The translations under genes and the position numbers were made by a program. This document shows, piece by piece, positions 10,367 through 15,467 of a stretch of 32,000 nt of DNA. Position 1 is the stretch's first letter; the number at the start of each line of letters is the position of its first letter. Source of the stretch: Candidatus Heimdallarchaeota archaeon B3_Heim (GTDB lineage: Archaea > Asgardarchaeota > Heimdallarchaeia > Hodarchaeales > Hodarchaeaceae); the NCBI GenBank assembly GCA_003144275.1, contig NJBF01000036.1, forward strand, positions 8,570-40,569, in the 5' to 3' direction. The notes under the pieces are model-generated. The model was given only the letters and a program-made list of their open reading frames with translations. It was not told where the DNA came from and did not search any database.

Positions 10367-11278
10367 TCATCTTTTGGTTGTTTTTTTATACAAATCGGCT
10401 AGTTCATCTATATCAAATTCTTCTAGAACTTCCTTCTGTTCACTTAGAGAACCAGTTTCATCCTTATCTAAAATGGCTCGTAATTTTTCATATTTGGTGC
10501 CTTTAATCAGATCTGGGTTTCGTAATTTTTCTCGTCCTTTGTCAGTAATTTTCCAGACTTGCTTAAAATCATCATATTCCAACTCACCTTTCGAACGTAA
10601 TTTGCGAAGTAAACCCAAAATTTTATCCCGATTGTATTCTACTTGGCCTGTGCGTGATATTATCTCAAGTTGACCTAAAATTGCTAATAATGGTAAGCCT
10701 AATTTCTTTTCTACAAGTATATCGAAGATATATATAGAAAGAAGCCTTGAAACACGGTCTTCAAGAGGAAATTTATCTCCTGTCAAGCATTCCTGAATCC
10801 ACGTGAGTACTTGTTCGAAAGATTTGGGAATTTTCCCTGTAGTGGAGAAAACACGATGTGGGAGATCATATCTATTTAACAGATCTAATTGATCAATAAT
10901 CACTGAAGGATGAGTTCTTGCGATATCTACTTTGTTAAAAACAATAGCTAAAGGCTTACCTAACATCAGAGGATCGTTTAAAATTCTAAGGAATTCTCTC
11001 CGGACTTCAGGAAAACTTCCTTCTTCACTACCATCAATAACAAATATACTCGCATCTACATGCTCCAAATATTCCTCAACGAACCTCCGTACCTCTTTTC
11101 TACCCCCAACCTCGATTATAGTAAAATTGGTTTTCCCATTGAGTATGATATCATAAGATTGATGAGCTGTTGATGGTATTCCTGGTTTAAACTCACTTTT
11201 TTGATAGGAATTTATGAGAGTAGATTTTCCGCTCCTTTCTAGCCCATATAAAAGTACCTGAATTGTATTCTTCAACAC
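10367..11278 (-). CDS. Arf-like small GTPase fused to a C-terminal winged helix-turn-helix domain
   Basis: G1 GLERSGKST, G2 T37, G3 EVGGR, G4 NKVD, G5 STT. Residues ~176-253 show a three-helix plus wing pattern ending LRSKGELEY...WKITDKGREKL. Confidence 0.8.
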   Translation of the reverse strand: MLKNTIQVLLYGLERSGKSTLINSYQKSEFKPGIPSTAHQSYDIILNGKTNFTIIEVGGRKEVRRFVEEYLEHVDASIFVIDGSEEGSFPEVRREFLRILNDPLMLGKPLAIVFNKVDIARTHPSVIIDQLDLLNRYDLPHRVFSTTGKIPKSFEQVLTWIQECLTGDKFPLEDRVSRLLSIYIFDILVEKKLGLPLLAILGQLEIISRTGQVEYNRDKILGLLRKLRSKGELEYDDFKQVWKITDKGREKLRNPDLIKGTKYEKLRAILDKDETGSLSEQKEVLEEFDIDELADLYKKTTKR

Positions 11279-11293
11279 TGTTCACTTATCATC

Positions 11294-11608
11294 TCATTCT
11301 ATTCGTTCAATTTTAAAATATACTGGTCGAAACCAATCGGTACAACCAACGATGTTACTATTTTCATCCACCATATGAGGAATATTTCCTCCATAAGCAA
11401 GCGTTAAAAGATCATGTCTTAAATCTGCCCACGCCCATTCGCAAAAACCCTCTGGAGGTTTATATCGACTCTCTTTCGTAACTTTAAACTCTTGTCCATC
11501 CTTAAACCGTTCACAGGGTCTTATGTCATGATATTTGTCCTTTACATACTCCTTTATTATATCACTATTAACAGTTCTTTTAATTACAGTTATTTTACAG
11601 TCATACAC
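11294..11608 (-). CDS. TIGR04076-family small Cys-containing protein
   Basis: CKITVIKR, PC.RF..GQEF, PEGFC.WAW and CTDWFRPVYFKIERI pattern. GGTG SD upstream of the GTG start. Confidence 0.8.
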   Translation of the reverse strand: MYDCKITVIKRTVNSDIIKEYVKDKYHDIRPCERFKDGQEFKVTKESRYKPPEGFCEWAWADLRHDLLTLAYGGNIPHMVDENSNIVGCTDWFRPVYFKIERIE

Positions 11609-13561: not shown

Positions 13562-14386
13562 CTAAAATGGCCGAGGGGGTAATTCATCCTTTATTCCCTC
13601 ATAAAGCTGCGAATTGATTTTGTTTAACAATGCCTCCAGGTAAGGTTTAATGTCATTATTGTAGAAAAATCGACACATCAATAGAAAATCTGTATTTTTC
13701 CCAATTCGCTTTATTATCCATCCCTCTCTATCCATTTCTTCTGATTCATCAGTTTCAATCCTTATTGCCTCTAACCATAAGTCCTTTTCTGATGGAATAA
13801 TTGGTATAAATGATTGAAATATTGCTCGTTCATTTGGATCATTTGAACCAAAGTTCCTGATTATTCCTTCATCTAAATCGGCAATATACAGACTTAGGAA
13901 CCGCATACCCATCATATTTTTTGCTTCAAACCGATTAATTTCAGTAGTAATGTGTTTAGAGAGATGAGAGGGAAAATGTTGTGAAAATTGTATAATTTCT
14001 TTTATTCGGGTTTGTTCCGACAAAGGTATGACATTTAGTCTTGAAAAATTGGAGTCTACAATTGATGAGAGAAAGACGTTCAAATTTCTATCGATAGCTT
14101 CGATTTTGGCTTTTGTATACCCCACATTATCAAAAATATCCTGTAATACAATATAGGCTATTGGTATAGTGTTTTCTTCTTTCGGATTGTACATTACTAA
14201 TTGAAAATTAGCTAAATGAACACTACGTAATTTACCTTCTCCTGCGAATTCTCTAGAGAAAGCAGTTAACGCACTCACCAAAGGCCAGAGGAGAGTAGGG
14301 TCCACTTTTAAATCAATATCATCATTCAAGAAAATTTCGTGTCCAATTCCAGTCTCAATGTTACAAATAGCAAAAAGATGAATCAT
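13562..14386 (-). CDS. Longin-like domain protein with a second longin/roadblock-like module
   Basis: N-terminal beta-beta-alpha-beta pattern IHLFAICNIETGI...DPTLLWPLVSALTAFSREF...LRSVHLANFQLVMY, typical of Asgard longins. A second alpha/beta module spans ~140-270. Confidence 0.55.
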   Translation of the reverse strand: MIHLFAICNIETGIGHEIFLNDDIDLKVDPTLLWPLVSALTAFSREFAGEGKLRSVHLANFQLVMYNPKEENTIPIAYIVLQDIFDNVGYTKAKIEAIDRNLNVFLSSIVDSNFSRLNVIPLSEQTRIKEIIQFSQHFPSHLSKHITTEINRFEAKNMMGMRFLSLYIADLDEGIIRNFGSNDPNERAIFQSFIPIIPSEKDLWLEAIRIETDESEEMDREGWIIKRIGKNTDFLLMCRFFYNNDIKPYLEALLNKINSQLYEGIKDELPPRPF

Positions 14387-14523: not shown

Positions 14524-15003
14524 ATGAAAAATCGATCCACGATGAATGAACAAGAAATGAAAGACTTTAGTATTAAATTAATGCGAGAAGCTAATGTTAC
14601 GTGCTTCACAACTGTGGACGTAACTGGATATCCTCATACGAGAGCAATATTCAATCTCAGAAATATAAAACAGTTCCCCACACTCGCTAAGATATTTGAA
14701 AATCAAAAGGAGGATCTTCTGATCTATATTTCCACAAATACATCATCTACCAAAGTGAAACATATCCGTACTAATACTGCGGTATCTCTCTGTTTTACAG
14801 ACCCTGAAGATTTTAGAGGATTAACACTTGGTGGGGATATTGAAATTGTGACAGATGAGACGATAAAGAAGGAACTTTGGCTTGATTGGTGGGATAAGTA
14901 TTACCCAAAAGGGATTGAAGATGAAGATTATACCATTCTCATGTTACAACCAAAAACCGTCGAGGTTTGGTATAAGGGTAAATTTAAATTTCAGTTTACG
15001 TGA
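14524..15003 (+). CDS. Pyridoxamine 5'-phosphate oxidase-like FMN-binding protein (general stress protein 26-like)
   Basis: TTVD..GYPHTR, IYISTNTSSTKVKHI..N..VSLCF and LWLDWWDKYYPKG..D.DY..L motifs. Confidence 0.85.
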   Translation: MKNRSTMNEQEMKDFSIKLMREANVTCFTTVDVTGYPHTRAIFNLRNIKQFPTLAKIFENQKEDLLIYISTNTSSTKVKHIRTNTAVSLCFTDPEDFRGLTLGGDIEIVTDETIKKELWLDWWDKYYPKGIEDEDYTILMLQPKTVEVWYKGKFKFQFT

Positions 15004-15467
15004 GTTTTATGAGTTCTATGAAAGAGCAAAGAGCAGCTGGTTACTTGATTGCAAAAATACATCAAAGAAGTGGACGTATCTTTGCGAAGAAGCTCAAAAA
15101 ATACGATATTCATGACATTAATCCTGCTCAAGGAAGGATTCTATTTACTCTGTGGCAAAAGGATGGATTGTCCATTATAGAACTTTCTAAAGAAACAGGA
15201 CTTAGTAAATCAACTTTAACTCCGATGTTGGATCGTTTAGAAAAATCTGGACTCATTAAAAGAGTTCACTCTACAGAAGATAGAAGGAAGATTCTAGTCT
15301 TCATTACTGAGAAAAACAAAAGACTTCAATCAAATTATGTTTCAGTATCGAAAAAGATGACTGAAATTTTTTATAAGAATTTTACAAATGAAGAGAGAGA
15401 TCAGTTTGAAATATATTTACGACGACTGCATAACAATCTTCTAGAGGAAGAAACTCAGAAGTTATGA
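15000..15467 (+). CDS. MarR-family transcriptional regulator
   Basis: QGRILF.LW..DGL, LSKSTLTPMLDRLEKSGLIKR and EDRRKILVFITEK; GTGA overlap with the upstream gene. Confidence 0.92.
   Translation: MSFMSSMKEQRAAGYLIAKIHQRSGRIFAKKLKKYDIHDINPAQGRILFTLWQKDGLSIIELSKETGLSKSTLTPMLDRLEKSGLIKRVHSTEDRRKILVFITEKNKRLQSNYVSVSKKMTEIFYKNFTNEERDQFEIYLRRLHNNLLEEETQKL

Follow-up and report, generated by a model that had tools for sequence, protein, structure and literature searches.

The usual view of Arf-family GTPases is that of single-domain switches anchored to membranes, and in Asgard archaea they are taken as markers of nascent membrane traffic. In Roc-COR (Roco) and STAND proteins, a P-loop NTPase domain is followed by a domain that dimerizes or contacts the nucleotide pocket. 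PadR-type winged-helix proteins normally dimerize via their terminal helices rather than via helix 2, and use the Tyr of the helix-3 motif G-T-L-Y-P for DNA contact. Within Asgard archaea, general statements in the literature describe small GTPases fused to longin or roadblock domains and regard domain shuffling as common, and a preprint on Asgard ArfR set aside proteins with extra domains in its N-terminal-helix screen. Departures from the usual G3 motif are also on record for the Arf family, namely in ARL16, whose G3 reads R-E-L-G-G-C, with Glu for Asp and no catalytic Gln (10.1101/2021.10.14.464442).

Here we describe a gene encoding an Arf-type G domain followed by a winged helix, located in a 32,000-nucleotide stretch of contig NJBF01000036.1 of Candidatus Heimdallarchaeota archaeon B3_Heim (the window). 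The open reading frame originally predicted at 10367-11278 is real; its strand, which had not been given, is minus, the plus-strand reading of the same interval being full of stops. The features of the gene are listed below in window positions.

10367-11278, minus strand: whole gene, 303 codons plus the stop codon at 10367-10369
10784-11278, minus strand: Arf-family G domain, residues 1-165, assigned by Pfam PF00025, Foldseek, and VIA
11222-11245, minus strand: G1 (P-loop) G-L-E-R-S-G-K-S, residues 12-19, with E14, S16, G17, and K18 invariant in the family
11099-11113, minus strand: G3 and switch II, E-V-G-G-R, residues 56-60, with Glu for the usual Asp and Arg for the catalytic Gln
10925-10936, minus strand: G4 N-K-V-D, residues 115-118, first position N, H, or S in the family; the predicted dimer contacts include residues 114 and 117
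10544-10756, minus strand: PadR-like winged helix, residues 175-245 (helix 1, 175-190; helix 2, 197-209; helix 3, 217-229; wing strands, 233-236 and 241-244)
10463-10543, minus strand: post-wing helices, residues 246-272, with conserved I-T-x-K-G and K-Y-E-K-L-R, aligned to the C-terminal helix found in short PadR proteins
10433-10462, minus strand: linker, residues 273-282, variable in length and low in conservation
10370-10432, minus strand: residues 283-303, a conserved amphipathic helix at the C terminus, acidic but ending in basic residues

The start codon is a GTG (11276-11278) with a purine-rich G-T-G-A-A just upstream, and non-AUG start codons are found across the whole Arf-winged-helix family. 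The stop codon of the upstream gene lies 16 nt before this GTG, and only ~6 residues precede strand 1 of the G domain, which is too little for the amphipathic helix and Gly2 found at the N terminus of Arf proteins, both already noted as absent from the sequence alone. Nearly all family members have only 6-10 residues before strand 1, and an in-frame stop is located immediately upstream. The gene directly upstream matches TIGR04076, and this pairing is shared with close relatives only. A contig from an RNA library covers only positions 11280-11430, within this upstream gene, and its coverage stops short of the GTPase gene.

The Arf affiliation of the G domain was consistently recovered across methods. 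Pfam PF00025 (Arf) matched residues 4-163 with 76.1 bits (E 3e-21, cut-off 22.3), while the other Pfam matches inside the G domain were Roc (28.1 bits) and Gtr1_RagA (18.1 bits, below its cut-off of 22), and NCBIfam returned only a generic small-GTPase domain. When searched with Foldseek, the G domain was closest to Arl3 and Arl13B (E about 1e-14), and the top 50 matches all belonged to the Arf family, including the Asgard GerdArfR1. The VIA structural search likewise led with Arf6 (Z 24.7, rmsd 1.7 over 163 residues), followed by Arl13B (22.5), Sar1 (22.1), SR-beta (19.5), RagA-like (19.3), and Rab (about 18-19), so that the Arf6 match stands ~5 Z units above Rab and Ras. The complete set of G1 to G5 motifs was verified at the nucleotide level, and includes Thr37 in switch I and a G5 F-S-T at residues 144-146. 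Across the family alignment, which comprises 25 sequences, the P-loop Lys and Ser, the switch-I Thr, the G3 Gly, and the G4 Lys and Asp are invariant or nearly so, and the residues needed for guanine nucleotide and Mg2+ binding (P-loop Lys/Ser, Thr37, Gly59, G4 Lys/Asp) are retained here.

The altered switch II, also anticipated by the original prediction, turned out to be a family-wide trait. Instead of the Arf consensus W-D-x-G-G-Q, the G3 region here reads I-E-V-G-G-R; E-V-G-G-R occurs in 24 of the 25 aligned homologs and E-V-G-G-C in the remaining one, and a divergent 251-aa family member carries E-V-G-G-S. E56 and R60 thus rank, together with the G motifs, among the invariant or near-invariant positions of the alignment. 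Judging by ARL16, the combination of Glu at the first position with a residue other than Gln at the last is not without precedent in the Arf family.

For the C-terminal region, structure prediction yielded a winged helix, as had been proposed. The full-length AlphaFold model (mean pLDDT 82.8, pTM 0.73) and a domain-only model (pLDDT 78) both fold residues ~175-245 into a helix-strand-helix-helix-strand-strand order followed by further helices. Searched with VIA, this domain was closest to VanR (5z7b, Z 11.1), AphA (1yg2, 11.0), and TA0346 (3elk, 11.0), and the PadR family provided 8 of the 9 best matches (Z 10.3-11.1); the WHB domains of cullin and APC2 reached Z 9.7-10.2, with lower rmsd than the PadR matches. 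Foldseek matches were weak (E 0.02-0.1), with LmrR, RosR, and MarR in the lead, and a structure search of the atlas placed an archaeal PadR cluster first (TM 0.51). At the profile level, hhalign connected the domain to the Asgard PadR protein P0085 over 72 columns (92.4% probability, E 5e-7), itself a genuine PadR (40.8 bits on Pfam PF03551), and to an 82-aa protein of the same order that consists of a winged helix alone (95%). The ESCRT-II type (Vps25/EAP30), which had been offered as the other possible identity of this winged helix, was absent from the top 50 of either fold search. Taken together, the winged helix is PadR-like in fold, and its remote ancestry among PadR proteins is probable.

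Direct sequence searches were far less telling. Pfam searches of the C-terminal domains of 28 members placed no PadR (PF03551) above threshold among the families listed, which were weak matches to Mrr_N, HTH_45, and other winged-helix families, none at threshold. Searching the PDB with the sequence of the C-terminal domain gave nothing significant, and phmmer against 1.8 billion representatives gave four matches, namely three family members and one repetitive protein. Features that would mark a DNA-binding PadR are only weakly developed in this winged helix. The PadR motif G-T-L-Y-P aligns to D-K-I-L-G, and the position of its Tyr is occupied by Leu, Ile, or Met throughout the family. The net charge of the winged helix ranges between -3 and +3, and every member has an acidic or neutral wing tip.

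The acidic tail was recovered as predicted (net charge -3), though it ends in basic residues. Its helix follows the family consensus D-E-F-D-L-D-E-L-A-E-L-Y-K-K-T-T and then K/R, with a net charge of -3 to -5 in most members and low hydrophobicity. We also considered whether this motif might be a portable peptide, and rejected the idea for this genome, in which a regular expression and a small HMM run on six-frame ORFs recovered this gene only. One 55-aa fragment was recovered close to the gene in a different genome.

A search of 5.8 billion proteins returned 62 clusters, of which about 60 share the full architecture, nearly all at about 300 aa with full-length coverage and 47-84% identity. 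Conservation of the whole architecture across this many homologous clusters is far above chance. The most conserved stretch of the C-terminal domain reads G-L-P-L-L-x-I-L-G-Q-L-E-I-I-S-R-T-G-Q, then R-D-K. When a profile of the C-terminal 138 residues was run on 400 Asgard genomes, all of the strong matches (E 1e-53 to 1e-65) were confined to one GTDB genus, where 19 of 21 genomes carried the gene, almost always as a single copy. None was detected in the other 379 Asgard genomes (0/379), where weak matches corresponded to standalone winged-helix proteins of ~100 aa and PadR-like proteins of ~220 aa. Labels provided by submitters were mostly Hodarchaeota or Hodarchaeales, along with a few Heimdall, Thor, Hermod, or phylum-level names. 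Similarly, a G-domain profile search scored all family members at 134 bits or more, the next best being a eukaryotic Arf-like protein at 84 bits and then Arl6 and Arl8 at about 60 bits, and a search for shorter proteins, i.e., split or G-domain-only forms, gave contig-end fragments only. The fusion is therefore kept in orthologs, which disposes of the concern that it might be a one-off or a misassembly, and the locus holds a gene that is intact and conserved within a single Asgard lineage of Heimdall/Hod type.

The host genome is otherwise rich in related GTPases, with 48 loci scoring on the Arf model. Among these are canonical proteins that combine W-D-x-G-G-Q with an amphipathic helix at the N terminus, as well as several proteins with other C-terminal domains. 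In a quick tree with these paralogs, the family formed a fully supported clade with a long stem (1.79) and short internal branches, placed with weak support (SH-aLRT 67-85) inside the Arf-type group alongside paralogs and eukaryotic Arl6/Arl8-like sequences. This combination of a long stem and short branches fits a single burst of change followed by purifying selection. With canonical Arfs encoded in the same genome, the protein is therefore a derived offshoot rather than the "standard" Arf of this genome.

Modeling of two full-length copies predicted a homodimer with ipSAE values of 0.64, 0.58, and 0.56 (median 0.58), against 0.00 for the best control; contacts agreed between runs to 86% or more, and the partner pLDDT never fell below 77. 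The score mark applied is reached by 20 of 30 solved homodimers and by 1 of 23 solved monomers, counts which are approximate for this case given the custom alignment used. The predicted interface is symmetric. Residues 198-212 of the winged helix, R217, and part of helix 1 pack against their counterparts, and the interface extends on the partner G domain to residues 114 and 117 (G4), 123-129, 133-134, and 142-145 (strand 6, G5). Invariant or near-invariant positions make up 16 of the 32 interface residues (Fisher p 0.0025) and 10 of 18 within the C-terminal half (p 0.0014), a test which is not fully independent since the prediction itself took the 25-row family alignment as input. This would explain why conservation within the winged helix peaks in helix 2 and the loop between helices 2 and 3, and not in helix 3 (the "recognition" helix). 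The predicted interface includes neither helix 3 and the wing nor Arg60 and the switch regions, so that the dimer model leaves the G3 change unexplained. No solved chain matched the two-domain arrangement when the full-length model was searched with VIA, alignments ending by about 170 residues; because none aligned beyond the G domain, it is unlikely that the dimer pass reflects recall of a known complex.

Building on the observed domain make-up, folds, conservation, and phyletic range, the reading we tentatively favor, at slightly less than an even chance, is that of a lineage-specific, two-domain, atypical Arf-family GTPase acting as a homodimer, in which the winged helix serves first as a dimerization and coupling module. 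The G domain would still bind guanine nucleotide and Mg2+ via the retained residues. The membrane anchor of Arf proteins has been lost, and this is therefore not a membrane-recruited Arf; with the catalytic Gln also lost (Arg60 here), GTP hydrolysis is probably slow or proceeds by a different route. In the predicted dimer, helix 2 and the following loop (198-212, with R217) would pack on the same elements of the second copy, while the same surface would touch the guanine-base loops (G4/G5) and helix 4 of the partner (residues 114-145). Nucleotide occupancy and dimer geometry may thus be interdependent, and we infer from this arrangement both a coupling of nucleotide state to the dimer and an output directed at proteins. 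The surface left free for this output would comprise helix 3, the wing, and the conserved acidic C-terminal helix, where a partner could be met.

The same free surface can be read differently, since helix 3 and the wing are the elements that bind DNA in related proteins. On such a reading, the protein would be a one-component, GTP-gated transcription factor, i.e., a PadR-like dimer seated on an operator via helix 3 and wing, with the nucleotide state of the Arf-like domain setting its affinity for DNA and the acidic helix either mimicking DNA in autoinhibition or contacting the basal transcription machinery. The best fold matches are indeed DNA-binding regulators (PadR, MarR, and RosR), the hhalign match is to a real PadR, a symmetric dimer is what DNA-binding winged-helix proteins need, and family-wide non-AUG starts would suit a low-abundance regulator; the resemblance of the tail to acidic-hydrophobic activation motifs is a lead only. 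We consider this unlikely nonetheless, as the near-neutral winged helix with its acidic or neutral wing tip, the replacement of the PadR Tyr, and the lack of PadR from the Pfam families listed for this part of the protein all speak against it, and as the predicted interface buries helix 2, the usual contact for the DNA backbone. Genomic context points the same way. By inspection in an informal motif search, the 160 nt upstream of 19 orthologs held no shared palindrome or motif, and an autoregulatory operator was rejected on these grounds. A conserved operon was likewise dismissed, as neighbors differ between distant orthologs and only close relatives share a neighborhood, and no conserved divergent or neighboring target gene was found among the ortholog neighborhoods compared. 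The nucleotide-gated DNA-binding regulator of the original prediction thus gained no positive evidence. A more specific form, in which an Arf-type switch sets the geometry of a PadR-like dimer on DNA within a single chain and an activation-domain-like acidic helix contacts the basal transcription machinery, seems distinctly improbable. These neighborhoods also provided no partner, GAP, or GEF that could be named for the Arf-winged-helix protein. In one Heimdallarchaeum genome, a RagA-like gene encoding 300 aa adjoins the ortholog.

Other alternatives concern the state of the switch and the place where it acts. The absence of the catalytic Gln from every member (mostly R, with C or S in single members) and the variable first residue of G4 (N, H, or S) could indicate a hydrolysis-dead pseudo-switch, with nucleotide bound permanently or never, serving as a static dimeric scaffold or adaptor in the manner of Arl13B and other atypical GTPases. 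One of the best structural matches of the G domain is to Arl13B, itself without the Gln and extended at its C terminus, and ARL16 offers a parallel with its E-L-G-G-C. Yet the near-invariance of the P-loop, switch-I, G3, and G4 residues suggests selection for nucleotide and Mg2+ binding and for a working switch, and a near-invariant Arg at the catalytic position suggests function and not decay, which makes a pseudo-switch rather unlikely in our assessment. A role in membrane traffic, with the protein reaching membranes by its C terminus through the amphipathic helix and basic end, would be in keeping with an Arf-related family in a lineage with many trafficking-type GTPases, and Lys or Arg does end the tail in most members. 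This we regard as very unlikely, given a tail helix too acidic and too low in hydrophobicity to fit anionic archaeal lipids well, the lack of a lipidation motif or a predicted membrane segment, and the presence in the same genome of canonical D-x-G-G-Q Arf-related proteins with an N-terminal amphipathic helix. Compared with these readings, the homodimeric GTPase with a winged helix for dimerization and coupling remains the one we tentatively favor.

No published description of the Arf-winged-helix architecture was found in the literature searched, in agreement with the initial impression that this was not a described family, and the Heimdallarchaeum ortholog (UCE14160.1) was not found by its accession among the supplements of the Asgard ArfR preprint. 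What emerges is a Heimdall/Hod-type lineage which rebuilt an Arf-type G domain, losing the anchor and the catalytic Gln and gaining a winged helix, and in which the rebuilt GTPase, probably a dimer, was then kept under strong selection. Should the winged helix really touch the G4/G5 loops of the partner as predicted, this would represent a new way to couple a small GTPase to dimerization. If instead the winged helix binds DNA, the protein would be a new kind of one-component regulator, and a GTP-gated transcription factor of this type would give a "eukaryotic signature" small GTPase a direct part in regulating genes among the archaea closest to eukaryotes. Either way, a count of Asgard "Arf-like" genes is not to be equated with one of membrane-traffic switches.

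Among known systems, the eukaryotic Arf family (Arf6/Arf1, Arl3, Arl13B, Sar1) and Asgard ArfR (HodArfR1, GerdArfR1) share the G-domain fold and PF00025 with this protein (Z 22-25), and 8oum/8oul, found among the structural matches of the G domain, belong with this comparison. The context of switch II here, E-V-R-x-F-x-x-x-Y, also resembles the Arf pattern. The protein nevertheless differs from Arf and ArfR in having no N-terminal amphipathic helix, in reading E-V-G-G-R for W-D-x-G-G-Q, in its extra 140-aa C-terminal region and predicted homodimer, and in its very long branch of weakly supported position. ARL16 is similar in its Glu for Asp and lack of a catalytic Gln, and one family member shares its Cys (E-V-G-G-C), whereas ARL16 has just one domain, at a length of about 170-230 aa, and most members here have Arg rather than Cys. 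ARL16 clusters also appeared among look-alikes with a score of 0.82, a lead only. The PadR regulators (VanR 5z7b, AphA 1yg2, TA0346 3elk, and LmrR) have the same winged-helix fold, including the long loop between helices 2 and 3 and the helix that follows (Z 10-11), but the domain described here stays below the Pfam threshold among the families listed, has its Tyr replaced and its wing acidic or neutral, is fused behind a GTPase, and is predicted to dimerize via helix 2 rather than terminal helices. Rag/Gtr GTPases are alike in plan, their ~300 aa being divided between a small G domain at the N terminus and a dimerizing domain at the C terminus (dimerization being a prediction here), and 8yl2 is a homo-oligomeric Asgard RagA-like structure; their C-terminal domain is a roadblock and not a winged helix, and their G domain is of Rag type and not Arf type. 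The likeness to Roc-COR and STAND proteins is one of function only: no COR or NB-ARC signal appeared in the Pfam lists for the full protein or the C-terminal domains, and the contact is here predicted in trans, to the G4/G5 loops. Overall, the Arf-winged-helix protein would belong to the known class of multi-domain, dimerizing small GTPases, as an Arf-family member whose dimerization is predicted from modeling.

Within the GTPase family, the position of the start is conserved across the orthologue-carrying loci L002-L024: the P-loop glycine lies 10-11 codons downstream, and each start is preceded 5-10 nt upstream by a purine-rich stretch. ATG is rare at this position, based on a comparison of the window start (11276-11278, minus strand) with the homologous site of L002-L024, where the codon was TTG at about 8 loci, CTG at about 7 (e.g. 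L003 and L019-L024), GTG at 2, and ATG at 3, two of these from one genome. In several family members, ATG, GTG, and TTG were all absent from the open frame ahead of G1 (the P-loop).

The following genes were annotated around the GTPase gene in the window:

11294-11608, minus strand: TIGR04076-family gene (104 aa), 3' end 16 nt upstream of the GTPase gene, same strand
13562-14386, minus strand: 274-aa ORF, with a conserved counterpart in synteny at L002:801-1625 (a close relative)
14524-15467, plus strand: PNPOx-like gene and MarR-family regulator gene, overlapping by 4 nt (15000-15003)

The TIGR04076-family gene and the GTPase gene are probably carried on one transcript; their adjacency is retained in close relatives only (L002, L005-L009) and was not found at the loci of more distant orthologues. 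The 274-aa ORF had no match in Pfam or NCBIfam. The PNPOx-like and MarR-family genes, which look like a small operon, likewise adjoin the GTPase orthologue in L002. Contigs from marine-sediment and cold-seep metagenomes covered the GTPase gene (compared within 10367-11608) at roughly 92-95% identity (e.g. 53 differences over 939 nt for a 10-kb contig of metagenome run X1), and these environments therefore host close relatives.

Sequences matching or resembling parts of the C-terminal region also occur outside of full-length orthologues, including one ORF in genome G069:

L034:1492-1659, minus strand: 55-aa ORF, C-terminal tail motif only

The motif reads E-E-F-D-L-E-K-L-V-E-L-Y-K-K followed by basic residues. 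The ORF lies about 4.4 kb from the full-length GTPase gene of G069, and looks like a leftover of a duplicated 3' end. In the representative protein library, the repetitive protein P0066 (516 aa) contains four copies of a unit (S-W-K-I-S-S-x-G-R-D-K, then K-G-R-K-Y-D-K-L) resembling the wing and post-wing part of the GTPase's C-terminal domain.

At locus L001, in the complete Heimdallarchaeum genome, the orthologue is part of a small cluster of GTPase genes. The others in this cluster encode a Gtr1/RagA-like protein of 300 aa (132 bits) and an Arf-like protein of 179 aa; a HEAT-repeat protein is encoded nearby. Cluster members are located at L001:3184-4086 (minus strand) and L001:4548-5086 (plus strand). 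The source genome of the window (G000) holds 48 loci scoring against the Arf model, for example:

G000:C4:13503-14006, minus strand: Arf-scoring locus
G000:C96:102902-103423, minus strand: Arf-scoring locus
G000:C27:23905-24390, minus strand: Arf-scoring locus

At three of the 48, the product is an Arf-type protein 326-347 aa long that carries a C-terminal domain of another kind; one of these three proteins displays a Sar1-like D-L-G-G-H motif.
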